DNA from: an uncultured Candidatus Saccharibacteria bacterium
GTDB lineage: Bacteria > Patescibacteriota > Minisyncoccia > UBA6257 > UBA9933
Assembly (NCBI GenBank): GCA_964453135.1
Contig: CAYVOL010000001.1
Span: 88,895 to 152,894, forward strand
Reading direction: 5' to 3'
DNA length: 64,000 nucleotides
Under the pieces are notes generated by a model. It made no database searches, was not told where the DNA came from, and saw nothing but the letters and a program-made list of their open reading frames with translations. Shown here piece by piece: positions 25,972-63,489 of this stretch (the first letter of the stretch is position 1; every line of letters starts with the position of its first letter). The position numbers were made by a program, and so were the translations under genes.

Positions 25972-26102
25972 TGTCATTCTTCCCGACCTTCTGTCATTCT
26001 GAATCCGCCAGCCGGCGGAGAAGAATCTCCTTGATTCAACCGGAAAGCTTGCTACTTCGGAACGAGATCCTTCGTCCGCCAACTGGCGGACTCAGGATGA
26101 CG
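25972..26102. repeat. MITE/REP-like nested-palindrome element, copy A (GTCATTCTGA...AAGAATCTC // GAGATCCTTCG...CTCAGGATGAC)
   Basis: Core shared with the seven other copies; internal palindromes CCGCCAGCCGGCGG and CCGCCAACTGGCGG. Confidence 0.6.
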
Positions 26103-26164
26103 CAAACGATTATAATGACAATTAGAACGGGAGACAATATATATCCGCGGTTTCTAATCGCCGT

Positions 26165-27214
26165 CTATCGGCGCAGTTTCTGAAACGCCCGGTAAACTTC
26201 GTCAACCGTAATTCGGGAAATGAAACTATTTTGGGAAGAAAAAAATAATTGCCCCAATCCCCGGCCATTGGTTTTATCAATGGAAGCGCCCAAAGAATTG
26301 ATATGAAAATGAGGCCCGGCGCCGAAAATAGTTATTCCTTTCAATCCGGCAAGATACGCCAGATTGCTCGGCCCGCTGTCTACGCCGATAAAGTAATCGG
26401 CGTTTTTGAAAACAACAAGCAATTCGGGAATGTCTATCTTATTAATCAGAGAATGAACCACGAAGCTCAGCGAGGAATAAATGCGCTCGTAATTTTTTAA
26501 ATCTTTTTCTCCGCCGACAAAAATAAATTGAAAATTTCCCGACTGATTTATTTTTTCCAACAGCTCAATCCATTTTTTATTATCCCAGCGCTTCATCGGC
26601 CAATTTGCCCAAGTATGAATAATGATTTTCTTTTTCTTGCTTTTGAAAATCTCATGGAAAACCTCTTGGGATAAAACCTGGTAATCGCTTTTCTGAAACT
26701 GAAAAATGTCGTCAAGGGAAACACTGATATCTCTTTTAAGCAGAAATTCGCAGTTAAAAGTTCTTCAGGTTTTGGGCTGACTTCTAAATAATAAATTTTT
26801 TGTCAAATGAGCGACATATTTTAGCCCCGCGAACAAAGTAGTTTTAATCTCGCCCGCCGATATATTTCTTACTATTCTATACGCCCCTTTGTTCATTCTC
26901 ATTATAATTATTTTTTCGTACGGTTCAAAATTTTTCTTTTCATTTATTTTTTCCACGACAAACACTTCATTGACCCCTTTTAATCTTTCTGCCAGAGATT
27001 TCAACGCGGGCGAAACTAAAAGATCAACTTTTTTGTCTTTATTTTCAGCGATGAAAAAAGAAAGCGCCGCGGCAGCCGACGCGAATTCGCCGATAAGGCA
27101 AGGAATGACGATTAAAATTTTGTTGTTTTTATAATCGCGCGTTCTTTTTGTCAGCTCAATGATGCCGCCCAGGGCCGCCTCCTGCCAGATGTTAAAATAC
27201 TCGCGATTGAACAT
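26165..27214 (-). pseudogene. Glycosyltransferase family 9 (heptosyltransferase-like) gene split into two ORFs (26165..26596 and 26765..27214); likely a frameshift/pseudogene, or a sequencing error
   Basis: The N-terminal ORF has the GT9 N-domain. The C-terminal ORF carries 'FIGVDSGPSNLAYLAGLKGITIFG'. The two ORFs are 143 and 149 aa; a typical GT9 is about 340 aa. Confidence 0.45.
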
Positions 27215-27215
27215 T

Positions 27216-28553
27216 TTACTTAACTAATAATCTTCTCATTCTAATCCCCTGGCTAATAAACTCTCCCAAGGATATGGTTTTAAAAATATCGCGCCACATT
27301 AAAATTTCTCCTTTTAGGCCGCTCCGAAATCCGTTTTTCTTCACCTTGCGATTATTGTACACTTTTTCCATTATAACGCTTCTGATGCGCAATCTATTTC
27401 CTATTATTATCTTGTTGAGAAAAACTTCTAATCCGAAACTTTTTAATTTTTTCATTTCTTCCAGCCGCGCCGCCACTATTGATTTCGGAAATACTCTTTC
27501 GCCGCTCATAAAATCTATCCCGATTATCTTTTTCATCCAGCGCGGGGTATTTTCTCTTATGCTTATTGCCGCGTCCGCTTGTCCGGACGCCACCGGCTCT
27601 ATCAAGGAAACAATGTTTTCGGATTTCAAACCAAGAAGGTCCGCGTCCAGCATTACAATGTGCTCACCCGAAGATTCCGCTATTCCTCGGGCAATACTCG
27701 CGCTTTTTCCCAGATTTTTCTCATTCGTCAATAATTTTACTTCCGGAAATTTTCTTGCCGTTTCTCCGGTTTTATCCGCAGAGCAATCGTCTATCACGAT
27801 TATTTCGCGCAAAAAACCAGATGCGCCAATTGCCGCCTGAAGAGTATTGCTGATTGTTTGCTCTTCGTTGTAAGCGGGAATAACGCAGGAAAAATTTTTC
27901 TTGTTTTCTCTTAATTTTTCGGATGCGGGAATGATTTCTTTTCTTTTTTCCAAAATTTTTTCTTCTTTTTCCTCTAAAAACAAGACTTCTTTCTGCGAAC
28001 GACGGGCCAAATTATACAGCGCGGCGAAAACAATCGCCAGCGCCGTAGCGATAAAATATGCTTCTCCAAAATATCTGCTGATAACCGAGTAAAAACTTCC
28101 CGCGGCGTAGCCAGCTCCCATCAAAACGCTGTACTGAATGGCGCTGATAGGGACAGTGTAAGAAACAAATTTTTTATAAGATATTTTCGCCATTCCGGCG
28201 CTGGTTAAAAATATCGCCGCCATGCCGTAAGCCAGCTTGCCAAAAAACATCATTCGGAAAGGATAGTCGTTCCACAATCCTTCAACTATTGGAAAATGTT
28301 TCTGGAATTTTTTGGACTGGAAAATATACTTTTCAATAACTTTAATACTGTCCGCAAAATAGCCGAGAAGATACAAAAAAGAGTCCGGAATAAAATCGCC
28401 GAGCAGCAAGATAAAAAAGGCGGGCAGGAAGAGCAGAAAATTTGACCGGATTAAATAGCCGGCAAGCAAAGACACCACAGGGCCTTCGGAAGCGGCCAAA
28501 ATAAAAAGCGCGACATATTTGTAATGAAGCAAAGTTTGCAAGATGGGAATCAT
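27216..28553 (-). CDS. Fusion protein: N-terminal DedA/VTT-domain membrane module plus C-terminal GT2 glycosyltransferase (dolichyl-phosphate sugar transferase-like)
   Basis: N-terminal 200 aa hydrophobic with a DedA-like pattern; the C-terminus has 'FSCVIPAYNEEQTI', 'VIDDCSADKT', 'IVMLDADL'. Confidence 0.65.
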   Translation of the reverse strand: MIPILQTLLHYKYVALFILAASEGPVVSLLAGYLIRSNFLLFLPAFFILLLGDFIPDSFLYLLGYFADSIKVIEKYIFQSKKFQKHFPIVEGLWNDYPFRMMFFGKLAYGMAAIFLTSAGMAKISYKKFVSYTVPISAIQYSVLMGAGYAAGSFYSVISRYFGEAYFIATALAIVFAALYNLARRSQKEVLFLEEKEEKILEKRKEIIPASEKLRENKKNFSCVIPAYNEEQTISNTLQAAIGASGFLREIIVIDDCSADKTGETARKFPEVKLLTNEKNLGKSASIARGIAESSGEHIVMLDADLLGLKSENIVSLIEPVASGQADAAISIRENTPRWMKKIIGIDFMSGERVFPKSIVAARLEEMKKLKSFGLEVFLNKIIIGNRLRIRSVIMEKVYNNRKVKKNGFRSGLKGEILMWRDIFKTISLGEFISQGIRMRRLLVK

Positions 28554-29347
28554 AAAAAGTTTAGGCCGAAAACTTTCCGCGCGTTTTCGGTTGTTTGACT
28601 ACAGACAATTTCTAAAGAAACATTTTTTATTTCCGCCAATTTTTTGGCAATTTCTTCCAAATAAAACGGCTCATTTCTTTGTCCCCTGCGGGGCGCGGGC
28701 GCCGCGAAAGGCGCGTCGGTTTCCAGCAGAATTTTCTCCCATGGCAGACGTTTGATATCTTTAATATGAGAATAATTGGGAAAAGTAATCACGCCGGAAA
28801 AAGAAATGTAAAATCCCAAGTCAAGATAATCCCCGATATTTTCCCAAGCATCTTCACCGCTGAAAAAATGCATGACGCCCGCGCGTTCTTTTAAGAGTAA
28901 ATCGCGGTTGTCTTGTAAAATTTTCAGCATGTCGCCGTGGGCTTCGCGGCAATGGACAACCAGCGGCTTTTTTACTCCATGCGCCAATTGAATGTGCTTC
29001 AAAAAGGCTTCCTTTTGCTTTTCTTTATTATTCGCCGCATGGTGATAATCAAGGCCGCATTCGCCGATTACCGCAACTGCCGGCTCTTTGGCTAATTCTT
29101 GAAAAAAATGCGTGTCGTTGTCGGAAAAAAAATCTTTTTCAATATCGCCCGGATGGCAACCAACCGCCGCCCACATTTTGCCTTTATATTTTCCCGCCAA
29201 CTCCACTGCTTGCTCTGAACTTTTTTTATCCACGCCCACGTTAATCATCCCTATTCCGTTTTTCAAAGCGCGCTCAATAACCAATTCCCGGTCTTGGGCA
29301 AATCGGGGAAACTGCAGATGGGTATGTGTGTCAATTAATTTTAGCAT
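28550..29347 (-). CDS. tatD: TatD-family metal-dependent hydrolase (DNase)
   Basis: 'LIDTHTHLQFPRF', 'ECGLDYHH', 'LVVHCREAH'; 265 aa. Confidence 0.85.
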   Translation of the reverse strand: MLKLIDTHTHLQFPRFAQDRELVIERALKNGIGMINVGVDKKSSEQAVELAGKYKGKMWAAVGCHPGDIEKDFFSDNDTHFFQELAKEPAVAVIGECGLDYHHAANNKEKQKEAFLKHIQLAHGVKKPLVVHCREAHGDMLKILQDNRDLLLKERAGVMHFFSGEDAWENIGDYLDLGFYISFSGVITFPNYSHIKDIKRLPWEKILLETDAPFAAPAPRRGQRNEPFYLEEIAKKLAEIKNVSLEIVCSQTTENARKVFGLNFL

Positions 29348-29358
29348 AAATTGGAGTT

Positions 29359-29447
29359 GTCATTCCGAGTTCTCATTGTAGGAATCTTAACCAACAAGTC
29401 ATTCCTCGCCTCCGCCACCGCCGTGGCGGGGCGGAGGCGAGGAATCT
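29359..29447. repeat. MITE/REP-like element, copy B (GTCATTCCGAG...GAATCT / ATTCCTCGCCTCCGCC-accgccgtggcgg-GGCGGAGGCGAGGAAT)
   Basis: Same core family, with a long perfect inverted repeat. Confidence 0.5.
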
Positions 29448-29454
29448 ATAATTT

Positions 29455-30804: not shown

Positions 30805-30852
30805 AAATTAAATTTCAAATTTTATATTCACGACAGGTTCCCCGCGGAATTC

Positions 30853-31647: not shown

Positions 31648-31700
31648 AATTTTATTAACCGCAAGATAAACACTGCCAATTGTTCCAACGAAATCTTTTC

Positions 31701-31790
31701 TGGCGGAGGCGGAAGGATTCGAACCTTCGATGCCATTTCTGGCATACCTGTTTTCAAGACAGGCCGTTTCAACCGCTCGCGCACGCCTCC
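31701..31790 (-). tRNA. tRNA-Ser (anticodon TGA), type II with a long variable arm, CCA encoded
   Basis: Reverse complement GGAGGCGTGCGCGAGCGGTTGAAACGGCCTGTCTTGAAAACAGG...GAAGGTTCGAATCCTTCCGCCTCCGCCA. Confidence 0.8.
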
Positions 31791-31834
31791 AATATAATTC
31801 TTAATTTTTCCGACGAAGCGGTGGGATATTCTTG

Positions 31835-36795: not shown

Positions 36796-36866
36796 CGGGC
36801 TGTAGTATAACGGCAGTATACACCCTTGGGGTGGGTGCGACCCGGGTTCAATTCCCGGCAGCCCGA
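36796..36866 (+). tRNA. tRNA-Pro (anticodon GGG); C1:G72 present, CCA not encoded
   Basis: CGGGCTGTAGTATAACGGCAGTATACACCCTTGGGGTGGGTGCGACCCGGGTTCAATTCCCGGCAGCCCGA. Confidence 0.75.
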
Positions 36867-36885
36867 CAATAATATAATAATTGTT

Positions 36886-37584
36886 ATGCGCACCAAAGAC
36901 GGCTTATGGAAATTGAGTCCCAGCGGGCTTTACGGCTTTCATAAATGCAAAGCTTGTTTTTGGCTGGAAAATCATCACGGCAAGCCCCCCTCTTTGCCCT
37001 GGCTCCTCAACAGCGCCATGGACAGCGTCTTAAAGGCGCGCTACGATTTTTACCGCGAAAAAAATGAATTTCCTCCGGAAATCGCGGCCTTAAAAAAAGA
37101 GGGAATAAAATTTTTCAACGACTCTGATATTTTGAACAAGTGGCGTGGCCATTCTTCGCATCTGAAAATCGTTAATAAAGAAATTGGGTATGAATTGGCC
37201 GGCAAAATAGACGATGTTTTGACGGAAACCGACGACCGCTTAATTCCGGTTGATTTCAAGTCGTCGGGCTACGCTCCAAAAGAGGACAAGAAAAAATATT
37301 ATCTTGACCAGCTCAACGCTTACGCTTTGATGTTTCGCGAACACGGCTATCCGCCATCGGACCGCGCCTTTCTTTTTCATTATTTTGTCAAAAATACAAA
37401 AAATCCCTCTCTTAACGTGGAGTTTGAAAGCCATATTGATTTGGTAAAAATTGAAATTCCTGCTTTGGAAAAGATGTTGGCTGATATCGTAAATCTATTA
37501 AACGGGCATTACCCGGGCGATGATATTGGATGCGAAGCGTGCGTTTATTTTGAAGGAAGAGGCGGGATGAAAAACAAAAAATAA
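36886..37584 (+). CDS. PD-(D/E)XK nuclease-superfamily protein (Cas4/RecB-like, with N- and C-terminal Cys pairs). Start moved to the ATG at 36886, downstream of the tRNA.
   Basis: 'FHKCKAC' N-terminal Cys pair, 'IDDV...LIPVDFKSS', 'YLDQLNAYALMF' QxxxY motif, C-terminal 'CEAC'. Confidence 0.6.
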   Translation: MRTKDGLWKLSPSGLYGFHKCKACFWLENHHGKPPSLPWLLNSAMDSVLKARYDFYREKNEFPPEIAALKKEGIKFFNDSDILNKWRGHSSHLKIVNKEIGYELAGKIDDVLTETDDRLIPVDFKSSGYAPKEDKKKYYLDQLNAYALMFREHGYPPSDRAFLFHYFVKNTKNPSLNVEFESHIDLVKIEIPALEKMLADIVNLLNGHYPGDDIGCEACVYFEGRGGMKNKK

Positions 37585-37671: not shown

Positions 37672-38583
37672 ATGGACATTAATGTTCTCTTAAAAGAATA
37701 TCTTGATTACCTGGAAATTGAAAAAAACCGCTCGCCGAAAACCCGGGCGAATTACGAGCGTTATTTGAAAAAATTTTTTTCTTTCGCCAATATTAAAAAC
37801 GAAAAAGAAATTACCGCTGACGCAGTAAAAGAATTCCGTCTCCATCTTGCCCGCGCGACTCTGGCAAAAAACGATGAAAAAGAATATGAGAAAACAACGC
37901 AAAGTTATTACATTATTGCCCTAAGAAATTTTTTGAAATACCTGATTAAAAATAATTATCTCGTTTTATCGCCTGACAAAATTGAACTGCCGAAAATACC
38001 TCCGCGCCAGATAGAGCCGTTAAGATACGCCGATTTGGAACGATTGCTCTCCTCTCCCCAGGGCGCGGATATAAAATCTTTAAGAGACAAAGCAATTTTG
38101 GAAACATTGTTTTCTACGGGATTGCGCATTTCCGAACTTTGCGCCTTGAACCGCTATCTTGACTTAAAAAGAGGAGAATTGAGCGTACGGGGGAAAGGAG
38201 GAAAACTGCGCGTTGTTTTTCTTTCGGAAAGCGCCCGGGAAGCGATAGCAACTTATCTTGACAAAAGAAGCGACGCGGAGGAAGCGCTTTTTGTCAGTTT
38301 AACCAAAGCAAAAAATCCGAAAATTATTGGCCGGATTATCCCGCGCGCGGTTCAGCGCACTGTTGATTTTTATTCCCGCAAAGCCGGCATTGCCCAGAAA
38401 GTTCATCCGCATCTTTTGCGCCACGGATTTGCCACGGATCTTTTAATAAACGGCGCGGACTTGCGGGCGGTGCAGGAGCTTTTAGGCCACGCCAATATAT
38501 CCACCACCCAAATTTACACGCACCTTACCAACAAAGAACTAAAAGAGGTGCACAAAACTTTTCACGCCCGAAGGAGAAAATAA
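37672..38583 (+). CDS. Tyrosine site-specific recombinase, XerC/XerD family
   Basis: 'RISELCAL', 'HPHLLRHGFATDLLINGADLRAVQELLGHANISTTQIYTHL' with the R...HxxR...Y catalytic residues; N-terminal SAM-like core-binding domain. Confidence 0.8.
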   Translation: MDINVLLKEYLDYLEIEKNRSPKTRANYERYLKKFFSFANIKNEKEITADAVKEFRLHLARATLAKNDEKEYEKTTQSYYIIALRNFLKYLIKNNYLVLSPDKIELPKIPPRQIEPLRYADLERLLSSPQGADIKSLRDKAILETLFSTGLRISELCALNRYLDLKRGELSVRGKGGKLRVVFLSESAREAIATYLDKRSDAEEALFVSLTKAKNPKIIGRIIPRAVQRTVDFYSRKAGIAQKVHPHLLRHGFATDLLINGADLRAVQELLGHANISTTQIYTHLTNKELKEVHKTFHARRRK

Positions 38584-43852: not shown

Positions 43853-44398
43853 CTAAACGAATCTTTTCACCATTACCACGTCATAATAAGATTTGGGCAA
43901 AATATCCAAATAGTGCTCCACTACGCCTTGAAGTATTGGGTTAATTTCTTTGTTGTCCGCGGCGTGAATGATGTTTCCATTGCCGGTATAAATTGCCAAA
44001 TGACCGATGTAAATTTTTTTTCCGTTAAACCGAGAATGCCAGTAGTGCCCTTTGGTGCCTTCAAAAAATAAAACATCGCCCGCTTCCATTTGAGATACGG
44101 GGATTTCTTCCCCCATATCAGAAGCGGCCTGCAAAATAGAAGAGCGCGGCAAGCCAACGCCGACTTGCCGGAAAACATATTGACTAAAAGAAGAACAATC
44201 AAAACCGCGCGGCGCTTCTTCGCTGTTTTCCACAAGATAAGCGCCGTATTGATAAGGCACGCCGACAAAACTGCGCGCCAATTTTATTAATTTTTTTATT
44301 TTTTCTTCGCGGGTCATTGTCATGCAACGCCCAGCCTGAAACTTGTATCCTGAAATAGCGAGGCAGGAAACTAATTGCGAGATTCGGGCTGTTTTCAC
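43853..44398 (-). CDS. NlpC/P60 (C40) family peptidoglycan endopeptidase
   Basis: Catalytic Cys 'FDCSSFSQYVF', His 'GHLAIYTGNGNIIHA'. Confidence 0.8.
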   Translation of the reverse strand: MKTARISQLVSCLAISGYKFQAGRCMTMTREEKIKKLIKLARSFVGVPYQYGAYLVENSEEAPRGFDCSSFSQYVFRQVGVGLPRSSILQAASDMGEEIPVSQMEAGDVLFFEGTKGHYWHSRFNGKKIYIGHLAIYTGNGNIIHAADNKEINPILQGVVEHYLDILPKSYYDVVMVKRFV

Positions 44399-45148
44399 TT
44401 AATTCCTAAAATGCCAGTGCCAAGGTTCAAACGCCATTCCTATTTTATTATTTTTTGGATAAGAAAGGAAAAAATCAAACTGGCGCGCGTTATGAGTAAG
44501 CCAGCCATATTCTTTTGTCTTATAAAAATTTTTTAAATCGGCAATCCCCCGGCAAGGCGCCACGTCAATGCCCTGAATTTTAACACTGCAATGTTCGCTG
44601 TAAGCAGGCAAGCAAGCCAACCGCAATGTTTTTTTCAAGTCAAAGTCATTGCCAACAAATTTAGAAATAAAAAGCATCACCTGAAACGCCGGAGAACGGT
44701 ACCCGGAATAAACATTGATTTCGCGATTGATGTCGCTCTTCATTTTTTTATTAAGCTCGCGGAAGGCAAGGAAATTGTTTTTTGGCAGGAAGTGGGTGAA
44801 TTCCATTATCTTAATTTCCTTCTTGATGATATAACGCTGTCCTTTAATCGACACTAAATTTTTCGGCACCGGTTCAACGCCTAAAAATCGCGCTTTTATG
44901 CCGTAATTTTTCGGATTAATAAGCAAAACAGCGTCTATCAATTTTTTTTCGTCTTTTGCTAAAAAAGAAAAGAGTCGGTCAAAGGTTATCACCCGAAAAT
45001 CATGATTTTTAACAGCTCCCCTTTCTCCCCGCTCGCAGCGAAACTTTTGGGATATTTTTTCCGCGATTAGGCGATTTTCTTTGTCTAAATTTTCAAAATT
45101 AATCATTTCAATATAAAGATAGGTAATGACTATGCTCGTGTCAATCAA
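44399..45148 (-). CDS. M15-family D-alanyl-D-alanine carboxypeptidase (VanY/LAS-like)
   Basis: 'SGYRSPAFQ', 'PAYSEHCSVKIQGIDV', 'EPWHWHF' Zn-binding motifs. Confidence 0.7.
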   Translation of the reverse strand: MIDTSIVITYLYIEMINFENLDKENRLIAEKISQKFRCERGERGAVKNHDFRVITFDRLFSFLAKDEKKLIDAVLLINPKNYGIKARFLGVEPVPKNLVSIKGQRYIIKKEIKIMEFTHFLPKNNFLAFRELNKKMKSDINREINVYSGYRSPAFQVMLFISKFVGNDFDLKKTLRLACLPAYSEHCSVKIQGIDVAPCRGIADLKNFYKTKEYGWLTHNARQFDFFLSYPKNNKIGMAFEPWHWHFRN

Positions 45149-45323
45149 CGAATTTCATCAACCGAAAGATAAAAGCCCAAAGAAGCCGGAAGATGAAATC
45201 TGGATTAAAAAGTTGCGAGAAAAAAGGGCGTGTTGTAACATAAAACCAGTTCATAGGGACAAATCGTCTTTAACTTACTAAAGCCGCGGCTATACAAAAA
45301 TAGCTCGGCAAGGAGGAAGCGCA

Positions 45324-45665
45324 ATGGGATCCAATGCGGAATTAGAAGAAGCGGGAGGGTCGGCGACGGCGCAAGTGGAGATGTTCGGGCTGTGCGGAGA
45401 AATACTCAACCAACTTCCCCAAGAGACGCAGAAGGACATTCATATCACCATTCACAGGGACTTGATCGCGGAGGTCTTCGTCAGAGAAGGAATGGACAGG
45501 GCAAAAATGACGAAGATAGCCGACATCCAGAAGGTAGTCGGCGATAATAATAACAACGCGGTGGCGGTCAGAGACACATCGGGAAGGATGTACAGATGTC
45601 TCTGCCTGAAAGCCACGGCAGAGACCATCCAGGAGATAGCGACGGCTTTCCTCGCTATCAGATGA
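45324..45665 (+). CDS. Small GC-rich hypothetical protein (113 aa) with a strong Shine-Dalgarno site (AAGGAGGAAGCGCAATG)
   Basis: ORF track; SD spacing; composition differs from the neighbouring genes. Confidence 0.4.
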   Translation: MGSNAELEEAGGSATAQVEMFGLCGEILNQLPQETQKDIHITIHRDLIAEVFVREGMDRAKMTKIADIQKVVGDNNNNAVAVRDTSGRMYRCLCLKATAETIQEIATAFLAIR

Positions 45666-45682
45666 ATTGCCCCTCGCAACAC

Positions 45683-45714
45683 GTCCAGCGTCCCGCCACA
45701 GCGGGACGCTGGAC
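45683..45714. repeat. 14-bp perfect-stem hairpin, GTCCAGCGTCCCGC-caca-GCGGGACGCTGGAC, directly 3' of the 45324..45665 ORF; no U-tract
   Basis: Read directly from the sequence. Confidence 0.55.
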
Positions 45715-45780
45715 AAAACTTCCTCAAAAATATTTTCAAAAAACAAATAGCGGAATTTGACGTCTTATTTCCATTAATGA

Positions 45781-46533
45781 ATGAAATTAATCATTCAAAA
45801 CATCGCAACAGAATATCATGATGAAGGGAAGGGGCAAACTTTATTGTTTCTGCACGGATGGCAGGACAACTCTAATGCTTTTGATTCTTTGATTCCTTTT
45901 CTAAATTCCCGCTTCAAAATAATCAGGGTTGATTTACCGGGATTCGGCAAAAGCGAAGCGCCTCCCGCGATTTGGGAGCTTAATGATTACATCATTTTTG
46001 TAAAAAATTTTATTTCCAAATTAAACCTTGATATTTACGCTTTGGTCGGCCATTCTTTCGGCGGGAGGATTATCATCAAGGGTGCGGCGGAAAAAATTTT
46101 AGATACGGAGAAAATTATTTTGATTTCTTCCGCCGGCATTTCCCAAAACAGCATTCTCCGCAATTTACTGTTTAAAATCTTGGCCAAAGCCGGCGCCTTA
46201 ATCACTTTTATCCCTCCCTTGATTTTTTGGAGGAAAAAATTTCGCGAAACTATGTACCGCGCATTAGGCAGTGATTATTTAGAGGCCGGCGACTTGAAAG
46301 AAACTTATCTAAAAATTATCAAAGAGGATTTGAGTTCCAGCGCCCAAAAAATAACAACGCCCGCGCTTTTAATCTGGGGCGCGGATGACAGAACAACGTC
46401 GCTGAAAGACGGAAAACGTTTGTCGCAGTTAATCCCGAACGCGAAACTGGAAATAATTGACCAAGCCGGACATTTTGTCTGCAAAGAAAAACCGCAAGAG
46501 GTCGCGGAGTTAATTTCTGAATTTCTATCATGA
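45781..46533 (+). CDS. Alpha/beta-fold hydrolase
   Basis: 'LLFLHGWQDNSNAF', nucleophile elbow 'GHSFGG'; 250 aa. Confidence 0.8.
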   Translation: MKLIIQNIATEYHDEGKGQTLLFLHGWQDNSNAFDSLIPFLNSRFKIIRVDLPGFGKSEAPPAIWELNDYIIFVKNFISKLNLDIYALVGHSFGGRIIIKGAAEKILDTEKIILISSAGISQNSILRNLLFKILAKAGALITFIPPLIFWRKKFRETMYRALGSDYLEAGDLKETYLKIIKEDLSSSAQKITTPALLIWGADDRTTSLKDGKRLSQLIPNAKLEIIDQAGHFVCKEKPQEVAELISEFLS

Positions 46534-53777: not shown

Positions 53778-54519
53778 GAGTTTTTTGTGGGGGATTCTCT
53801 TGGGTTTGTTTTCCTGGCAGGGAGGAATTTTCTGGCTCTCGCTGTTTTTAGCAACCTCTTTTTATCTTTACTTCATTAAGCCGGTAGAGCGAGGCAAGTT
53901 TTTGTATTCTTTTTTAATTTTGGTTTTTTACGCTCCGATAGTGATTAAATTTTTGGGCGATTTTTACCCCCGCGTCATTCCGAACGCTCCGCAGGAAGGA
54001 GCGGGAATTTATTTATCGGCTATAGCCGTTGCCGGCTTTTCCCTGCTGTGGTTTTTTCTCTTGGGGAGCAAAGAACTTCTGTTTATCCGCCGAGGAGAAA
54101 TTTTTAATTTCATCAGCGGCTTGCTTTATTTTTTAATTGCCGCGGTTTACTTCGCGGCCGTCGCCAATCCGCCGTCTTCCGCTATTTTTCTTTTTTATTT
54201 TCTGGCGACAGCGCTGGCTTTTTATTTTCTTTCCCGGGAAATTTTCCGGTTCTATTTTCCCGATTTATCTCCCGCAAGAAACGTTCTCTTTGCTTCGGTT
54301 CTATCTTTTCTGATTTCAGAGATTCTGATACTGACGCCTTTTTTGCCCATCGGGTTTCTTAATTCAGCCATTTTAATTATTCTGGCGATTTTTATTCTGG
54401 AAGATTTAATTTTTTACCATTTGCGCGGCAAATTAGACTTCCGCATTATTGCCAATAATGTTATCATTTTAATTGCGGGGATTTTCTTCATATTTTTAAC
54501 TTTGAACCGCAGTTTGTAA
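53713..54519 (+). CDS. Polytopic membrane protein, hypothetical. It overlaps the clpB 3' end by 64 nt, so the true start is probably a downstream TTG/GTG.
   Basis: ORF track; eight or more hydrophobic helices. Confidence 0.4.
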   Translation: MLKKLKSLLRIQTLTLWPLILKSFLWGILLGLFSWQGGIFWLSLFLATSFYLYFIKPVERGKFLYSFLILVFYAPIVIKFLGDFYPRVIPNAPQEGAGIYLSAIAVAGFSLLWFFLLGSKELLFIRRGEIFNFISGLLYFLIAAVYFAAVANPPSSAIFLFYFLATALAFYFLSREIFRFYFPDLSPARNVLFASVLSFLISEILILTPFLPIGFLNSAILIILAIFILEDLIFYHLRGKLDFRIIANNVIILIAGIFFIFLTLNRSL

Positions 54520-56998: not shown

Positions 56999-57080
56999 AA
57001 CTTTTCTATTGTTGGCCTTATTGGCCAACGCATAAATTCGCTTGGCGAATTTATGCGTTGGGGCACACTGTTCGGAAAGT

Positions 57081-57206
57081 GTCATTCTAAGTCCCGTCTT
57101 TCCATTCCTCTGTCATTCTGAGTCCCGCTAAGCGGGACGAAGAATCTCATACCGCGGTAATTTCCGGGATGCTGAGCCCCCGCCGTGGCGGGAGCTCAGC
57201 ATGACC
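57081..57206. repeat. MITE/REP-like element, copy C
   Basis: GTCATTCTAAGTCCCG...GTCATTCTGAGTCCCGCTAAGCGGGACGAAGAATCTC...GATGCTGAGCCCCCGCCGTGGCGGGAGCTCAGCATGAC. Confidence 0.6.
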
Positions 57207-57365: not shown

Positions 57366-57947
57366 ATGAAAAGAGACGTGAAGGAAGGACTGCTGGGAGC
57401 AGTAGTGGGAGCGGCGGCGGTTTTGATAGGAGAACAGCTCCTGAAAAAAGCCGGCGCGGCAAGCGCGTCCGGCAACGAGTTTTCCGCGGATATAGCCCGC
57501 GCGAAACTTCAAGACGCCCTTCGACGTCTTGAGGCAAAGAACAAAACCGCGTACCAACGACTGCAAGAAAGGCAAAGGCAGTCGGAGGATCCAGGAAAGT
57601 TCGCCGGTTCACTGAGCAAACTCGTCGTCGCCTTTGACGACAACCCCGAAACGCTTCTAGAAATGCTGGAATGGGCAGGGATGATGGAAGAGCAGGAGTT
57701 CAGCGCTTTTCTTGAAGGCCTAAGCTACGAGCCTTTCGTCTATGTTCTCAAGCGCGCCGGCGTCTATGCCAAAGTCATCTGGGAGAAACTTTATTCCAAT
57801 AGCCCAGATGCGCCGGGGATTCTGCAGAAGATGGATAGGGGGCTCAATCAGCAACTTGGCCCTTTCCTGGAAAGATGGGGAGCAAGCGTCCAGGTGAGAC
57901 AAGACGCCCGAAGGCAAAGGATGGATTCCAGAAGATTCGTCTGGTAA
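57366..57947 (+). CDS. Hypothetical protein, paralog A of the RRQRMDxRRFVW-tail pair (193 aa); SD AAAGGAGAAAGCGGCATG
   Basis: ORF track; strong SD; visibly GC-rich; shares 'IRAKLQD', 'AYQRL', 'LEWAGxM...EFxAFLExL', 'VLKR' and 'RRQRMDxRRFVW' with 59126..59752. Confidence 0.55.
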   Translation: MKRDVKEGLLGAVVGAAAVLIGEQLLKKAGAASASGNEFSADIARAKLQDALRRLEAKNKTAYQRLQERQRQSEDPGKFAGSLSKLVVAFDDNPETLLEMLEWAGMMEEQEFSAFLEGLSYEPFVYVLKRAGVYAKVIWEKLYSNSPDAPGILQKMDRGLNQQLGPFLERWGASVQVRQDARRQRMDSRRFVW

Positions 57948-58145
57948 TTATCGGATTTGCCGAATATTCATAAAAGGCATATAGCACTTATAATATTATA
58001 TCTTAATCATATTGTGGGAGTTTCTTACTCTTTCAGGCTTTAAAATAGCGAGCCCGCCGCTATTATCTGAAGGAGTTTTTTGTTTGTCTTGATTTTATAC
58101 CTGACACTTGTTGCTTGCTTATAGAAGATGACGCGATTCGGAAGT

Positions 58146-58277
58146 GTCATCCTGAGCCCCGTCTTTCTAATTCTTCTGTCATTCTGAGCCCGCCAACTGG
58201 CGGACGAAGAATCTCGTACTGCGACAGAACCAGGGGATTCTTCGTCCCCCGCGCCATGGCGGGGGACTCAGAATGAC
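58146..58277. repeat. MITE/REP-like element, copy D
   Basis: GTCATCCTGAGCCCCG...GTCATTCTGAGCCCGCCAACTGGCGGACGAAGAATCTC...GATTCTTCGTCCCCCGCGCCATGGCGGGGGACTCAGAATGAC. Confidence 0.6.
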
Positions 58278-58464
58278 TTTCCAAACGACGCATGCGGAAA
58301 AAGTCAACCCCGTATATAGCAAATCTGCGCAGATTTGCTATGTGTAAGGTTGACTTTTTCATTAAAATATGCTTTTATAATAGCACGTTCTTCACAATAA
58401 AATATTGGATGATTGCGAACGAATAAGAATATAGATGACAACAACCAACAATGAAAGGAGGGTG

Positions 58465-59115: not shown

Positions 59116-59125
59116 GGAGAGAAAG

Positions 59126-59752
59126 ATGCCACTGGCGAATATTTGGGAATTCCTGGTAAGTGATATTGGCGGGGCTGTGGTGTGGGATGAAGTTCTGAAA
59201 CCCATCCTGAAAGGAGCCGTTGAAAAACACGGCGACAAGATGGGTCAAGTAGTCTACGACAAGTTTTTCACGGACAAAATCCGCGCAAAACTGCAAGACT
59301 ACTTCCGCCTCCTCAGCGAAAGAGGAGAAAGCGGAAGGGCCGCCTACCAGCGGCTAAGGGCCCGCCAGGAAAGGCATCAACGCGACAACACGGAAAATTT
59401 CTTCGTCGAAATGTTGGGGAAAGTTGTCTTGACTTTCGACGGAGAGGATCCCGAGGCCGCCCTGGACATTTTGGAATGGGCTGGAGCGATGAGCGACGAC
59501 GAGTTCAACGCCTTTCTTGAGGCGTTAAACCATGACGCGTTCTTGCAAGTCCTGAAGCGCCTCGGGGGGCACATTAGGTTTGTCTGGAGTAGAATTTACT
59601 CCAGCGACCTGAACGCGCCGGGACTCTGGCAACGCACGAATCAAAGCGTTGACCAGTGGGCAAACCCCTTCCTGAATAGGTGGGAAGGTAATTTACGCGC
59701 GCGACAACAGGAACGCCGACAGCGAATGGACGCCAGACGATTTGTCTGGTAA
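59126..59752 (+). CDS. Hypothetical protein, paralog B of the RRQRMDxRRFVW-tail pair (208 aa); SD AAGGAGAGAAAGATG; 10-nt gap to the upstream gene
   Basis: Shares the same conserved blocks as 57366..57947. Confidence 0.55.
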   Translation: MPLANIWEFLVSDIGGAVVWDEVLKPILKGAVEKHGDKMGQVVYDKFFTDKIRAKLQDYFRLLSERGESGRAAYQRLRARQERHQRDNTENFFVEMLGKVVLTFDGEDPEAALDILEWAGAMSDDEFNAFLEALNHDAFLQVLKRLGGHIRFVWSRIYSSDLNAPGLWQRTNQSVDQWANPFLNRWEGNLRARQQERRQRMDARRFVW

Positions 59753-59778
59753 ACCGATATCAAGCAAGGGAGGAAGTC

Positions 59779-60738
59779 ATGCATAGCATACTGCAAGCGT
59801 TGTGGTTTTTAGTTCAAGAAGTATGGGAGATAGCCGGCGCAGGCGTGGAGTTCACCCAGGTTATTACGAGGGTGAACAGCCACGGCCTCAGCGACCGGCA
59901 GATTTACCTCGCTGGCTTGAGACGCCTGGCGATTCTCGTTATCGTATTGCCCATCCCGCTCTTGGGAGCCAGCATTTGGCTCGGCGGGAGCTGGGCGGCA
60001 TCCGCGGGGATGATCTGGGCAGTCGCTTTTCTCTTGTTGTCTTTGGTCGCCGCCCCGATCGGGATGATTGTGGCGGCCCTGGGCAGTACAACGAGGGAGA
60101 GCGGGGAAAAATATGTGCGGGTTGTGCTATCAGTAGTATTTTCAGAACTGCTGGTAGCATTCTTCCTAGCTGTAGTGCCGATCAGAAATAATATATCGGC
60201 GCTACCCCTGCTAGCGTTGTGCGCGTTTATCATCATCCTTGCCGGAATGAAATTCCTCCGGAAAGGTTTGGTGATTGCGGCAGTGGCGGCATTTGCCCTG
60301 CTGGTGTTTTCGTTCTTCTTCCCAAGGACGTTTGAGCAGAAGATTGCTCCGTCCTTTGAGCGGTTAGATACCCAGATGGCGGCGGCGCCACCCGTGGCGA
60401 CTTCTGCGCCAGCGCAGCAACCCGTTACCGCGGCGCTTCCATCTCCGGCAAGGATTTATCCTAACTACAAGTTCGACCTTGTGGATAGGATTGAAGTTCC
60501 CCTATTGCCGGCTGGGCAAGTGCTTCCGCATGAGGCCGGGGGGTGGGTTATCCTCCCGATGGGAGCGCGCTACCGAGTAGACTACGATACGCCGGTCGTC
60601 ATTGAGTATAATGACGGCCGGAGATTCATACGCCGGCCCAATGAACCCGCGTTTGACGGGGTTCAGCCGGGCAACGGCATTTTCCGTCTTTACGGAGAAA
60701 ACGGCCAAAAAGCCGTTGTAACCATCCGCAAGGACTAG
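59779..60738 (+). CDS. Membrane protein, hypothetical: about six TM helices, a Pro/Ala-rich linker, and a C-terminal soluble domain of about 110 aa; SD GGGAGGAAGTCATG
   Basis: ORF track; hydrophobicity pattern; last gene before a canonical terminator. Confidence 0.5.
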   Translation: MHSILQALWFLVQEVWEIAGAGVEFTQVITRVNSHGLSDRQIYLAGLRRLAILVIVLPIPLLGASIWLGGSWAASAGMIWAVAFLLLSLVAAPIGMIVAALGSTTRESGEKYVRVVLSVVFSELLVAFFLAVVPIRNNISALPLLALCAFIIILAGMKFLRKGLVIAAVAAFALLVFSFFFPRTFEQKIAPSFERLDTQMAAAPPVATSAPAQQPVTAALPSPARIYPNYKFDLVDRIEVPLLPAGQVLPHEAGGWVILPMGARYRVDYDTPVVIEYNDGRRFIRRPNEPAFDGVQPGNGIFRLYGENGQKAVVTIRKD

Positions 60739-60769
60739 TTCTTTTTATCGGAAAGGAGGTGATTAATAA

Positions 60770-60810
60770 CCCCCATTGTTCGCGAGAGCAATGGGGGCGT
60801 TTTTATTTTA
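60770..60810 (+). terminator. Rho-independent terminator (stem CCCCCATTG/CAATGGGGG, then CGTTTTTATTTT)
   Basis: Read from the sequence, 32 nt after the stop at 60738. Confidence 0.65.
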
Positions 60811-60837
60811 AGCCAGACAAGTTTTGTTTATTTAAAA

Positions 60838-60882
60838 AGATTCATCGCCCCCCGCCATGGCGGGGCGGGGCTCGGAATGACG
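60838..60882. repeat. MITE/REP-like element, single half-module (copy E)
   Basis: GATTCATCGCCCCCCGCCATGGCGGGGCGGGGCTCGGAATGAC. Confidence 0.5.
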
Positions 60883-60938
60883 ACAAAATTTCAGAGAACT
60901 ACGCGCCACTTAATCGCAATGCGAAAAGCGTTAAAGAA

Positions 60939-61334
60939 TTACACGCCTCTTAAAACGCTATCAACAAAATCAGGCAAACCGTAAGCCACGAGTCCTATGG
61001 CTATGGCAATCACTGCCCAAAGCAAGGCCTGCTTCGCCTTATCATAATTTTTAGGGTCTGTCGCGCCAAACAAAAAAAGATAGGCGGCGTAAAAAACAAA
61101 ACCAATGGCGAAAATCCAGAAAGCGGTGGCAAACCATTTTAAAAGATTGCGAAAAAGACCCAAAACGCTTCCGCTTCCCCCTTCAACTTGAATAATAGGG
61201 CTATTTCCGGGGCCGGGAGGGCTCACTTGAGTAACACTAACATTATCAGCAAAAGAATGGCGCGGCGCTACTATGAAATACGCGGCTGTAATAACGATAG
61301 AAAAAATGAAAAACAAAGAAATAAGATTTTTCAT
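60939..61334 (-). CDS. TrbC/VirB2-like small two-TM 'pilin' family protein, paralog 1 (131 aa)
   Basis: Signal/TM helix, then 'LKWFATAFWIFAIGFVFYAAYLFLFGATDPKNYDKAKQALLWAVIAIAIGLVAYGLP', the pattern of the type IV secretion pilin family that is frequent in Patescibacteria (family assignment from recall). Confidence 0.5.
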   Translation of the reverse strand: MKNLISLFFIFSIVITAAYFIVAPRHSFADNVSVTQVSPPGPGNSPIIQVEGGSGSVLGLFRNLLKWFATAFWIFAIGFVFYAAYLFLFGATDPKNYDKAKQALLWAVIAIAIGLVAYGLPDFVDSVLRGV

Positions 61335-61351
61335 AAAGATTCTCTTTATCG

Positions 61352-61462
61352 GTCATTCCGAGCCTAGCCACGGCGGGGTGAGGAATCTTGACAGATTCTT
61401 CGCCCGCCTCCGCCCAGCCACAACGGGGTCATAGTGGGGGCGGAGGCGGAACTCAGAATGAC
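61352..61462. repeat. MITE/REP-like element, copy F
   Basis: GTCATTCCGAGCCTAGCCACGGCGGGGTGAGGAATCTTGACAGATTCTTCGCCCGCCTCCGCCCAGCCACAACGGGGTCATAGTGGGGGCGGAGGCGGAACTCAGAATGAC. Confidence 0.6.
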
Positions 61463-61476
61463 AATTTACCTTAATA

Positions 61477-61791
61477 TTATGGATTAAGAATGCTCTGAAT
61501 AAGCGCTGGCAAGCCGTAAACTAAAATTCCAACTGCCATTGCGATAATGGTGTAAAGCAATGCCCTTTTTGCCTCATCGTATTTTTTCGCATCCTGAGCG
61601 CTGAACAAAAAAAGATAGGCGGCGTAAAAAGCAAAGCCGATGGCAAAAATCCAAAAAGCGGTGGCAAACCATTTTTGGAATCGGTCTAAAATCGTAATGA
61701 CCTGCTGCAAATTTTGCGGCCCTCCGCCATCGGCTAAGGCGACAGAAAAAGGAATTATTAAAAGTGATACGGCAACAAAAAATTGAGACAT
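61477..61791 (-). CDS. TrbC/VirB2-like pilin family protein, paralog 2 (104 aa)
   Basis: 'FQKWFATAFWIFAIGFAFYAAYLFLFSAQDAKKYDEAKRALLYTIIAMAVGILVYGLP'. It shares a roughly 70-nt near-identical DNA stretch with paralog 1. Confidence 0.5.
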   Translation of the reverse strand: MSQFFVAVSLLIIPFSVALADGGGPQNLQQVITILDRFQKWFATAFWIFAIGFAFYAAYLFLFSAQDAKKYDEAKRALLYTIIAMAVGILVYGLPALIQSILNP

Positions 61792-61919
61792 AATTTAAAA
61801 ATTTAAAAGTATCGCGGAATGATTATTGAAATGCGCCAAACAATATCGTTATCGTTGCCGACTCCGTTTGCGGGTGAAATAACCGGCGCAAAAGCGGAGA
61901 CGGCAACAATTTTTTAAGT

Positions 61920-62297
61920 TTATTGCCCTTTAAGAAACTGATCCACCAAGAAAGGCAACCCGTAAGCCATTAAACCTATGATTATGGCGATAACGGCGTA
62001 AATCAAAGCGGTCTTTCCTTTCTGATGGCCGTCTTTGGAATGCGAAGCGAACAAAAACAGGTAAGCGGCGTAGAAGATATACCCCACGGCAAAAATCCAG
62101 AAAACAGTGGCAATCCATTTCAGAATAGTTCTGAGAAGTTCTAATGTGCTATTCACACTGCCTATTTTATATCCGGGATTTGTTAGTGGAGCCGTTACCG
62201 GATTTCCTATATTAGCCGTTTCAGCCGCGGCTCCCAAAGGAAAAACCGAAACCGCCGTTAAAGCCAGCAGCAAAACAAAAAATATCTTATTTCTCAT
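61920..62297 (-). CDS. TrbC/VirB2-like pilin family protein, paralog 3 (125 aa)
   Basis: 'LKWIATVFWIFAVGYIFYAAYLFLFASHSKDGHQKGKTALIYAVIAIIIGLMAYGLP'. Confidence 0.5.
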   Translation of the reverse strand: MRNKIFFVLLLALTAVSVFPLGAAAETANIGNPVTAPLTNPGYKIGSVNSTLELLRTILKWIATVFWIFAVGYIFYAAYLFLFASHSKDGHQKGKTALIYAVIAIIIGLMAYGLPFLVDQFLKGQ

Positions 62298-62366
62298 ACA
62301 ATTTATCTCAGTTAACGTTTTCTCAATTAACGACCTTTGAATTGTTTCCAGTATAACACATCATCC

Positions 62367-62678
62367 TTAAACTGTCAGCAATTCTCTGATAATTGCCACG
62401 ATTCCGTAAGCGCACCAGATAGCGGCGTAGCCGATAATCGCCCATTTCAGAGCGTTTGTTCCCTTTTTATATTCTTCGGGTTTGCCTCGGGAAAGAAGCA
62501 TCTGAAAAGCCGCGTAAATAACCATTATAACAAACACAAGAGTAAAAAGACCCATACCGGTGCTGATTACTTTCTGCAAGATATCATTCAAATCATTCCT
62601 GCCAAGAGGATTATAAATTCCGCTGCCCGTGCCGCCTTCCGTTTGAGCTAAAACTTTTTGAATGAGAAGATTTAACAT
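62367..62678 (-). CDS. TrbC/VirB2-like pilin family protein, divergent paralog 4 (103 aa)
   Basis: 'GMGLFTLVFVIMVIYAAFQMLLSRGKPEEYKKGTNALKWAIIGYAAIWCAYGIVAII' shows the same architecture of two TM helices with a short charged loop. Confidence 0.4.
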   Translation of the reverse strand: MLNLLIQKVLAQTEGGTGSGIYNPLGRNDLNDILQKVISTGMGLFTLVFVIMVIYAAFQMLLSRGKPEEYKKGTNALKWAIIGYAAIWCAYGIVAIIRELLTV

Positions 62679-62735
62679 TTTAAGTGAGAGTTATGGCGCT
62701 GTTTGAAAACTTCGACAGAATCAGCTTCTGTTTTT

Positions 62736-62863
62736 GTCATTCTGAGCCCTCCGCCGTGGCGGGGGCGAAGAATCTCTTGATTTTACATTAGCACGAGATC
62801 CTTCGCTTCGCTCAGGATGACATGATGGATTCTTCTCCGCCGGCTGACGAATTCAGGATGACG
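62736..62863. repeat. MITE/REP-like element, copy G
   Basis: GTCATTCTGAGCCCTCCGCCGTGGCGGGGGCGAAGAATCTC...GAGATCCTTCGCTTCGCTCAGGATGAC...GATTCTTCTCCGCCGGCTGACGAATTCAGGATGAC. Confidence 0.6.
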
Positions 62864-62884
62864 GTTTTCGAACAACGCCGAGAA

Positions 62885-63298
62885 TCATTGACAATTAATA
62901 CTGTTCCATGGTCCTAATCCTGGCCCGAGAACAGCCGGACCGCCGCCCAATGACGCGCCCATTAAAATTTTAATCGTAGTATCAATTATGAGCCAAGCGG
63001 CTAAAATAATTACAAAGCCGACAAGCGCCGTGCGAATGGTTTTTAACCCGCTTTGATATAAGGGCGGGTTGGCTCCGGCCACCAACATTTTAATTCCTCC
63101 CCAGACCATAAACGCCACAGCCAAAGAAGCGGCGATTCCTAAAACAAAATTATAAACATTTTGAAACAGCTTAAAAAAATTACAGAAGGTGCACATCGCT
63201 CCGCTTCCTCCGGGCCCGCAAGGCACCAAGGCGGCGCTGGCGGCGTTGACTGTTAAAAAGAAAAATAAAATTGCGGCGACAGTAAAAACGAAATTCAT
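62885..63298 (-). CDS. TrbC/VirB2-like pilin family protein, divergent paralog 5 (start moved to MNFVFTVAAILFF so that it does not run through the MITE); Cys-containing N-terminal region
   Basis: 'LAVAFMVWGGIKMLVAGANPPLYQSGLKTIRTALVGFVIILAAWLIIDTTIKIL'. The N-terminal 79 codons in the ORF track are the translated MITE copy H. Confidence 0.45.
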   Translation of the reverse strand: MNFVFTVAAILFFFLTVNAASAALVPCGPGGSGAMCTFCNFFKLFQNVYNFVLGIAASLAVAFMVWGGIKMLVAGANPPLYQSGLKTIRTALVGFVIILAAWLIIDTTIKILMGASLGGGPAVLGPGLGPWNSINCQ

Positions 63299-63359
63299 TA
63301 TGTAATTTAGTTGTAAGATTCCGTAGCGTTGTTTACGCTTTTCATCGTTGTTTTTGATT

Positions 63360-63489
63360 GTCATTCTGAACGTTTTCGTCATCCTTCGCCCCCCGCCATG
63401 GCGGGGGGCGAAGGATCTCGCAAGATTCTTCGCTACGTTTAGAATGGCAAATGGATTCTTCGTCCGCCAGTTGGCGGACTCAGAATGAC
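63360..63489. repeat. MITE/REP-like element, copy H
   Basis: GTCATTCTGAACGTTTTCGTCATCCTTCGCCCCCCGCCATGGCGGGGGGCGAAGGATCTC...GATTCTTCGTCCGCCAGTTGGCGGACTCAGAATGAC. Confidence 0.6.

Follow-up and report, generated by a model that had tools for sequence, protein, structure and literature searches.

A 64-kb stretch of DNA from an uncultured Candidatus Saccharibacteria bacterium (assembly GCA_964453135.1, contig CAYVOL010000001.1, positions 88,895 to 152,894 of the forward strand), hereafter called the window, carries a family of short intergenic hairpin repeats at eight loci, six of which are crowded into 6.5 kb among pilin and membrane-protein genes. Here we describe the anatomy, genomic setting and distribution of these repeats, together with a nuclease gene that they bracket in other genomes. 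We conclude that they are probably Ssn-related motifs (SRMs) within the CGTC/TGTC-tagged superfamily of repetitive extragenic palindromes (REPs), to which the dRS3 and NTS repeats of Neisseria also belong, and that they would be read by a nuclease of the Ssn family. All coordinates are positions in the window, and the sense of a module is read from head to tail, with a plus module beginning at its first-named coordinate and a minus module at its last.

Sixteen oriented hairpin modules at eight intergenic loci

Inspection of all GTCAT-headed sites gave 16 modules of the form GTC-AT(Y)C(T)-GA-[GC-rich stem-loop]-GA-(A)G(R)AT-C(TC), about one per 4 kb, with two further sites that are decayed or uncertain. 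All copies are intergenic. If up to one mismatch is allowed, the head GTCATYCTGAG is found at 18 places in the 64 kb; 0.87 would be expected, and no dinucleotide shuffle out of 100 had more than 4. The eight repeat loci of the original prediction all lie where it placed them. That prediction described every full element as two inverted modules. This is accurate for loci 1, 3, 4, 6 and 8, which are tail-to-tail inverted pairs, but not for locus 2 (a direct pair) or locus 7 (a triplet in the order plus, minus, minus); locus 5, listed there as a half-unit, is a single module. Similarly, positions 25973, 57081, 58146 and 63360, counted at first as the starts of elements, belong to head-only partial copies rather than full modules; each of these half heads shares its orientation with a full module and lies 18–32 nt upstream of it.

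Locus 1 opens with a half head, GTCATTCT followed by a pyrimidine-rich spacer (25973–25992, plus), and continues with the plus module GTCATTCTGAATCCGCCAGCCGGCGGAGAAGAATCTC (25993–26029; DNA fold −8.7 kcal/mol, z −3.3 relative to shuffles) and its tail-to-tail minus partner (26064–26101, z −4.7), in which the outer stem ATCCT/AGGAT is compensated. Its neighbors are a truncated GT9 glycosyltransferase gene and a PAP2 gene. The GT9 open reading frame (ORF; 26165–26596) spans only profile positions 119–223 of 247, and the ORF upstream of it (26765–27214) has no Pfam match; the gene looks truncated or split. Locus 2 lies between TatD and aminotransferase genes. The repeats expected at 29359–29448 are present there, not in inverted arrangement but as two direct plus modules: a decayed one that keeps only its outer stem (29359–29388, z −0.5) and one with an almost perfect 20-bp stem (29398–29448; −26.3 kcal/mol, z −8.3) that fills the 107-nt gap between the two genes. 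Beyond an identical protein, the nearest homologs of this TatD come from Candidatus Wolfebacteria and other Patescibacteria, at no more than 54% identity.

Locus 3 (57081–57205) and locus 4 (58146–58277) are recent copies of one composite, about 75–80% identical and including the half head and 5′ flank. At locus 3, a half head (57081–57111, plus) precedes a plus module (57112–57148, z −4.2) and a minus module (57166–57205; −17.2 kcal/mol, z −6.1) with the outer stem ATGCT/AGCAT; at locus 4, a half head homologous to the first (58146–58177, plus) precedes a plus module (58178–58215, z −2.0) and a minus module (58234–58277, z −4.0). The genes behind these near-identical composites are not paralogous, and the paralog of the gene after locus 3 has no element upstream; for the earlier idea that the elements drove the local gene duplications, this arrangement counts neither in favor nor against. 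The two paralogs (57366–57947 and 59126–59752) are 39% identical, share the C-terminus RRQRMD(S/A)RRFVW and have no Pfam match. A perfect 26-nt palindrome, ATAGCAAATCTGCGCAGATTTGCTAT, stands at 58314–58339 between locus 4 and the gene at 58435, and two other palindromes, at 57012–57058, come after the transketolase gene; none of these is related to the repeat family, and they may be operators or terminators.

The remaining loci lie around the pilin genes. Locus 5 is a single minus module (60837–60881) between convergent genes, adjoining a separate intrinsic terminator (60770–60810). Locus 6 pairs a weakened plus module that retains the outer stem ATTCC/GGAAT (61352–61389) with a long minus module of 71 nt (61392–61462; −21.3 kcal/mol, z −5.3) and separates pilin paralog 1 from paralog 2. 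Locus 7, which separates paralog 4 from paralog 5, holds a plus module (62736–62776, z −3.0), the minimal minus module GTCATCCTGAGCGAAGCGAAGGATCTC (62795–62821) and a decayed minus module with a mismatched outer stem (62826–62862, z +0.6). At locus 8 (63360–63489), inverted modules were found as predicted, within a more complex composite: a half head (63360–63377, plus), a plus module with a perfect 18-bp stem in which the head TTCG pairs with CGAA (63378–63419; −22.2 kcal/mol, z −8.1), the decayed minus copy GCCATTCTAAACGTAGCGAAGAATC (63423–63451), which folds no better than shuffles, and a minus module (63452–63489). Apart from this decayed copy, the other site outside the set of 16 is a possible hairpin on the plus strand, GTCATTCCGAA..GGGAAT (53974–54010, z −2.9), which lacks the C immediately 3′ of the hairpin and is followed by a T-rich run; its membership in the family is uncertain.

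Together, the loci at 57–63.5 kb surround four unknown or membrane proteins and five paralogs of the type IV secretion system (T4SS) pilin family (T4SS_pilin, PF18895). The five pilin genes are consecutive on the minus strand (60939–63301) within the repeat-dense 6.5 kb. In line with the earlier observation, several copies separate pilin paralogs (loci 6 and 7). The layout of hairpin, gene or genes, hairpin that recurs across this region, together with a tyrosine recombinase gene at 37672–38583, might suggest that the modules mark off cassettes, as attC-like sites of an integron or as targets of another recombinase. This reading is extremely improbable, however: the modules lack the RYYYAAC/GTTRRRY cores, the same modules also occur singly between housekeeping genes, and the recombinase gene lies 19 kb away beside a tRNA gene, as for Xer or an integrase. 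The tRNA-Pro gene (36796–36867), a PD-(D/E)XK nuclease ORF (36826–37584) and the recombinase gene form a block that could be an integrated element or include a Xer-type recombinase.

The repeats also create false coding sequence. The spurious ORFs at 25950–26183 and 58147–58362 and the repeat-derived N-terminal extension of 62885–63538, which the original prediction had pointed out, were all confirmed, and one of them is annotated as a gene in a public assembly (L001, 3382–3597).

A two-tiered hairpin maintained by compensatory change

Each module is laid out as GTC, ATTCT, GA, G-[GC-rich stem-loop]-C, GA, AGAAT and C(TC). The ATTCT and AGAAT segments pair as an outer stem and leave GTC and the final C unpaired, and the facing GA dinucleotides form a tandem G·A/A·G mismatch in a 5′-Y-GA-R-3′ context, which favors sheared pairs in both DNA and RNA. 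The conserved unit is GTC plus the hairpin plus C, and inside the hairpin the CTGAG and CGAAG segments make up a U-A pair, the tandem G·A/A·G mismatch and a G-C pair. Ten positions (G1, T2, C3, A4, T5 and C7 in the head; G16, A18, T19 and C20 in the tail) are invariant in all 16 window modules, as are the A4–T19 and T5–A18 pairs. The base that precedes GTC is T in 8, C in 4, A in 2 and G in 2 modules, the tails after the hairpin read CTC, CCC, CCA or CTT, and module size ranges from 27 to 71 nt.

As single-stranded DNA, 12 of the 16 modules fold better than their shuffles (z −2.0 to −8.3), in agreement with the stem-loops originally proposed. Eleven of these 12, the exception being 60837–60881, adopt the same architecture of GTC, a 5-bp outer stem, a 2 × 2 internal loop and a GC stem. 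For the other four (29359–29388, plus; 61352–61389, plus; 62795–62821, minus; 62826–62862, minus), the DNA fold is no better than that of shuffles. The tandem G·A internal loop is dispensable, because Watson–Crick pairs replace it in three modules: at 57166–57205 the tail is altered and pairs with CTGAG, whereas at 29398–29448 and 63378–63419 the head is altered and pairs with CGA(A/G)G. Both routes lead to perfect stems of 15–20 bp.

Covariation indicates that the structure itself is maintained. In the outer stems of the window modules, paired cells make up 93.6%, and double compensatory changes (UA to CG or GC) have occurred in two pairs; the score of the real modules was matched by none of 500 shuffles, and registers slid out of phase are only 18–55% paired. 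In a larger set of 277 modules from all the DNA that we retrieved, which spans many phyla, 270 are Watson–Crick complementary at two unconstrained stem positions. When the TT/AA combination forced by the scan is removed, 73 of the remaining 80 are complementary compared with 33 expected, in five different Watson–Crick combinations. Because compensatory pairing exceeds expectation both in the window and among the 277 modules, the modules are under selection for hairpin structure, and the initial description of a REP-like intergenic family under structural constraint is upheld.

Half heads are a recurrent feature. They consist of GTCATTCT(GAG) and a pyrimidine-rich stretch of 10–20 nt in tandem upstream of full modules, and are present at four of the eight window loci. 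In the retrieved DNA, they precede 39 of 650 modules, compared with 9 of 650 in a downstream control, and they recur across phyla, with long arrays in L074 (1–1700) and others in L133 (7942–7993) and L134 (1306–1378). Our guess is that they arise when a nick upstream of GTC is followed by slipped or template-switched repair.

The same module in many phyla

The elements are not confined to the window. When one genome per GTDB species was scanned for GTCATTCTGAG-N8-30-CGAAGAATC as an exact pattern, at least 120 genome stretches from more than 15 phyla were found to carry it. The matches listed include Chloroflexota, Acidobacteriota, Nitrospirota, Cloacimonadota, Desulfobacterota, Ignavibacteria, Bacteroidales, Flavobacterium, Omnitrophota, Verrucomicrobiota, Melainabacteria, Clostridia, Gamma- and Betaproteobacteria, Campylobacteraceae and Nitrospinota, as well as two metagenome-assembled genomes of the candidate phyla radiation (CPR; Gribaldobacteria and Parcubacteria). 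The same exact pattern is present in at least 120 viral-classed contigs of IMG/VR (L135–L254), one of which (L202, 8546–8927) has five copies in direct orientation about 86 nt apart. The most specific core in the window, CTGAGYCCGCCAACTGGCGGACGAAG (63452–63489), recurs unchanged in six metagenome contigs that are unrelated and otherwise have nothing in common with the window.

This spread excludes a lineage-specific MITE (miniature inverted-repeat transposable element), since the same motif is found across many phyla and the core is shared by unrelated contigs; it is compatible instead with a widely transferred pair of protein and site. The conservation of the module has to come from some reader of its sequence that is shared widely. 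The proposal of a MITE in the strict sense was not supported in other respects either: the elements lack terminal inverted repeats of the transposon type, and target-site duplications do not exceed chance, the longest k-mers common to the flanks being 0–5 nt and within the random distribution.

A GIY-YIG nuclease gene bracketed by the modules in other genomes

In one of the retrieved stretches (L075), an ORF of about 100 aa with a GIY-YIG domain (Pfam PF01541) lies between two modules, and L064 and L069 are alike. A profile search for single-domain GIY-YIG proteins returned thousands. From these we took four genes solely because they lie on long contigs, representing three independent loci (L123/124, L125 and L127/128), and all four are bracketed on both sides by GTCAyyCTGAG..CGAAGrrTC arrays in alternating orientation. 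In total, then, six independent loci have a single-domain GIY-YIG gene of about 95 aa bracketed by this module type. NCBIfam gave no name for these proteins, and the PDB gave only distant UPF0213 structures; literature queries with the raw repeat strings returned only primers and plasmids.

A tblastn search with the L064 protein matched a single place in two Neisseria gonorrhoeae chromosomes (52% identity, 94% coverage, E 6e-22), where a 94-aa GIY-YIG ORF lies amid 16 NTS copies (CGTCATTCCCGCG..GCGGGAATC) in 2.7 kb. The protein at this place is SsnA. The L075 protein is 48% identical to it, and overall the GIY-YIG genes of our loci are homologous to it over their full length at 48–52% identity. 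The locus was examined in NZ_CP119140.1 (1881087–1883756; L259) and is likewise present in NZ_CP119142.1; PLSDB lists these two 2.17-Mb chromosomes, which are almost without annotation there, as 'plasmids'.

In Neisseria, dRS3 belongs to a longer hairpin with a defined orientation, the NTS CGTCATTCCCGCGMAVGCGGGAATCYRG, which is intergenic and clustered at membrane- and surface-protein genes, and NTS-like SRMs flank 71% of homologs of SsnA, a 94-aa GIY-YIG protein (Chenal et al. 2025, Nat Commun 16:2388, PMC11893778). In that work, SsnA bound the hairpin solely as single-stranded DNA and on one strand, cut a few nucleotides upstream of it and reduced transformation by NTS-flanked DNA; cleavage required the three bases 5′ of the palindrome, and binding required above all the C just 3′ of it. 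The GTC needed for cleavage and the C needed for binding are each present in 16 of 16 window modules.

One of the new loci offers a view of how the arrays evolve. In L125 (1888–2468), the ssn gene and its arrays follow hsdM in a type I restriction–modification locus and precede the genes downstream of it. In three close relatives (L260, L261 and L262), with HsdM proteins 87–96% identical, the ssn cassette is kept between hsdM and hsdS, and there is no empty site; the ssn ORF is interrupted in L262 and the upstream array is expanded in L261. Because copy number next to this conserved hsdM–ssn locus varies among relatives that are 88–96% identical, the arrays turn over.

These data bear on two other explanations of the hairpins. 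The first is that they act in RNA, as 3′-end stabilizers, processing sites, or attenuators or insulators, with the tandem G·A as a protein-binding site. Tandem sheared G·A pairs are frequent in RNA, every copy is intergenic, with several in tight same-strand gaps (such as 29348–29454 and 61335–61476), and RNA roles have been proposed for tagged REPs (Di Nocera et al. 2013, PMC3733652). Against this, T-runs are missing after all the modules. For the same reason the suggestion that they might be classic intrinsic terminators finds no support, the true terminator at 60770–60810 being separate. Nor is any known structured RNA involved: at the gathering thresholds of Rfam 15 only tRNAs match in the window, and nothing matches the modules over 56.9–63.7 kb even at E ≤ 1. 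A hammerhead-like reading of CUGAG..CGAAG was rejected, as the core lacks the required bases and has no Rfam match. The inverted pairs would place both orientations in each transcript, yet the asymmetric GTC...C tags are strict, as would suit a strand-specific reader of DNA; the G·A loop is dispensable at three loci; and SsnA does not bind the RNA version of its site (PMC11893778). We therefore regard a role at the RNA level as quite improbable.

The second explanation is that the repeats are REPINs mobilized by a RAYT, that is, an IS200/IS605-like Y1 transposase, the partner that had been suggested at the outset. Their imperfect palindromes of about 35 nt, unpaired tag, inverted doublets, spacers of 20–50 nt and lack of target-site duplications would all suit such a model. 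However, the tag is (C/T)GTC rather than GTAG, CGTC-type REPs have no dedicated transposase (PMC3733652), and the neighboring gene encodes a GIY-YIG protein rather than Y1 in six of the six loci examined. Within the window, a Pfam scan of 62 distinct ORFs of at most 380 aa (10 are longer) found no Y1_Tnp or other transposase, but just the Xer-like tyrosine recombinase and the PD-(D/E)XK nuclease near tRNA-Pro. Like the attC model, the REPIN/RAYT model fails on its defining features, and we consider it very improbable. The gene class that does accompany the repeats in other genomes, the GIY-YIG nucleases of the Ssn family, was not among the candidates first proposed.

Two further observations concern the window and its source as a whole. 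The cumulative GC skew has its minimum at about 44000–46000, and gene orientation changes from mostly minus to mostly plus at about 45.7 kb; an origin or a terminus of replication may lie here. Logan short-read assemblies of the organism (SRR5161805 and SRR5161795; L256, L257 and L258) are fragmented into contigs of 1–4.5 kb, compared with the 181-kb NCBI contig.

Discussion

Our results support a model in which the window repeats are SRMs. We favor this assignment because the GTC and C positions found to be critical for SsnA are the very positions that are invariant in the window, and because this module type brackets SsnA homologs in six loci of other genomes. The likeness extends to the hairpin itself, which in both the Neisseria NTS and the window modules has an unpaired GTC on the 5′ side, a stem of the form ATTC...GAAT and an unpaired C on the 3′ side, and SRMs, like the window modules, are oriented and intergenic and lie near membrane- and surface-protein genes (PMC11893778). 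Oriented hairpins of 20–50 nt are common to both, one window module being 71 nt long. The window modules differ in being longer (27–71 nt) and in being two-tiered, with a 5-bp outer stem, a tandem G·A/A·G loop and a variable GC-rich inner stem. The host is also different: the window comes from Patescibacteria (CPR), and the main text of Chenal et al. (PMC11893778) contains no CPR name.

The same modules fit into an older grouping. CGTC-tagged REPs unite dRS3, Rickettsia RPE-4 and RPE-6 and many alphaproteobacterial repeats in families CGTC-1 to -4, which have a CGTC/TGTC tag, stems that open with two A-T pairs, short unpaired tails and frequent dimers (PMC3733652). The features by which they are recognized (a CGTC, TGTC or CCTC tag, A-T at pairs 1 and 2 and a short tail) are all found in the window modules, whose tails (CTC, CCC, CCA) resemble the CCA that is frequent there; both groups also form dimers with 20–100-nt spacers and lack a dedicated transposase. 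In contrast, the CGTC families have 8–9-bp stems, 4–5-nt loops and mostly head-to-head dimers and come mainly from Alphaproteobacteria (PMC3733652), whereas the window modules have 12–21-bp stems with an internal loop and form tail-to-tail dimers. More distantly, the REP/REPIN–RAYT system (Nunvar 2010; Bertels & Rainey 2011) shares with the window family small tagged palindromes, inverted doublets, an intergenic and non-autonomous character and a presumed dependence on one nuclease gene, present in a single copy and with repeats on either side of it, but it combines a GTAG tag with a Y1 HUH transposase, where the window family combines a GTC tag with the GIY-YIG gene class. A further parallel lies in the Neisseria intergenic mosaic elements, or NIMEs, which are repeat units bounded by dRS3 whose spacers are themselves repeat families (RS elements). 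These too are composite intergenic blocks of small oriented hairpins with variable spacers and alternating orientation; in the window, however, only loci 3 and 4 have a common spacer.

Several observations weigh against this assignment. In contrast to the Neisseria loci, the window has no ssn gene: jackhmmer and a 120-homolog profile run against its six-frame ORFs of at least 25 aa found no ssn or GIY-YIG ORF or remnant in the 64 kb (best E 3.9). Elsewhere, ssn lies within the retrieved DNA in only 3 of the 120 listed genome stretches and in none of the 120 listed IMG/VR stretches; such rarity is expected for dispersed repeats, yet it lends support to no individual genome. The published SRM pattern, HGTCWYN(0-2)YYVSBRHN(0-5)WNVSBRGN(0-2)RNCYNB, has 0 sites in the window and 0 in the six ssn-flanking loci, compared with 9 in a Neisseria positive control, so that the modules are outside the SRM family as operationally defined to date, the pattern being a search string built from 29 genomes and not a biological definition. 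In addition, the action of an Ssn protein on long-stem modules with a G·A loop would follow by analogy with the NTS, and the small chance of an RNA-level role, discussed above, must be counted here as well.

The absence of ssn from the 64 kb also suits an alternative in which the repeats are orphan or fossil SRMs, brought in by an ssn cassette of the past or through recombination with DNA from elsewhere, neutral or slightly selfish, read by no active Ssn and giving rise at most to occasional recombination or slippage. About 19% of SRM-rich genomes have no ssn homolog, the other 81% having one (PMC11893778); the four poorly folding modules and the decayed extra copy at 63423–63451 are what such a history would leave; and the identical 38-nt modules in unrelated contigs likewise have no ssn nearby. 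Nonetheless, most modules have perfect tags and compensated stems, which points to recent activity or continuing constraint, their density is high, with six loci in 6.5 kb, and loci 3 and 4 are recent mutual copies. On balance, we think it unlikely that the modules are mere relics.

If the repeats are indeed SRMs read by an Ssn nuclease, the source Patescibacteria genome would have, or would once have had, an ssn gene, and by analogy with Neisseria its product would accept long-stem modules and affect recombination here as well. Module hairpins would form whenever DNA becomes single-stranded, as in incoming transforming DNA, the lagging-strand template or recombination intermediates. The single-domain GIY-YIG nuclease of about 95 aa would bind the hairpin with its GTC and C flanks and nick the strand a few nucleotides 5′ of GTC, and with tail-to-tail pairs each strand would offer one correctly oriented cleavable site per locus. 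In this way, the genes at 57–63.5 kb, five for pilin paralogs and four for small proteins that are membrane-bound or unknown, would, as single-stranded DNA, be cut away from long homology, and their replacement by homologous recombination would be lowered or patterned. Competence genes are enriched in Patescibacteria, for which natural transformation has been demonstrated (PMC11665869), so the uptake of single-stranded DNA is relevant here. As to their origin, the repeats most likely spread and turned over together with ssn–SRM cassettes, with some local duplication in addition, of which the half heads may be the trace.

A bolder model would treat Ssn and its hairpins as a self-propagating mobile system in which a GIY-YIG nickase of single-stranded DNA takes the part of a 'transposase', the half heads are footprints of nick-and-copy events, and a competent, host-attached Patescibacterium has co-opted the system to set off its cassettes of pilin and surface-protein genes, either shielding them from replacement by incoming single-stranded DNA or favoring it. 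We put this forward as a speculation that we ourselves find rather doubtful.

CGTC-tagged REPs have been recognized since 2013, and Ssn as their partner since 2025. What is new in our study is the presence of a member family in a Patescibacteria genome, an ssn-flanking sub-family that the published pattern misses, the dense bracketing of pilin paralogs and the recurrent half-head arrays. For annotation, these repeats need masking, as they produce false ORFs and N-terminal extensions (58147–58362 and 62885–63538), and they may contribute to the fragmentation of short-read assemblies of the source organism. The scope of the Ssn/SRM system would now reach the ultra-small Patescibacteria and a very common sub-family with long stems and G·A loops; because the published pattern detects none of this sub-family, SRM numbers are underestimated in current censuses. 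Finally, the bracketing of T4SS-type pilin paralogs parallels that of surface-antigen genes by the NTS in Neisseria, and it raises the testable idea that a competent episymbiont may control recombination at the genes through which it interacts with its host.

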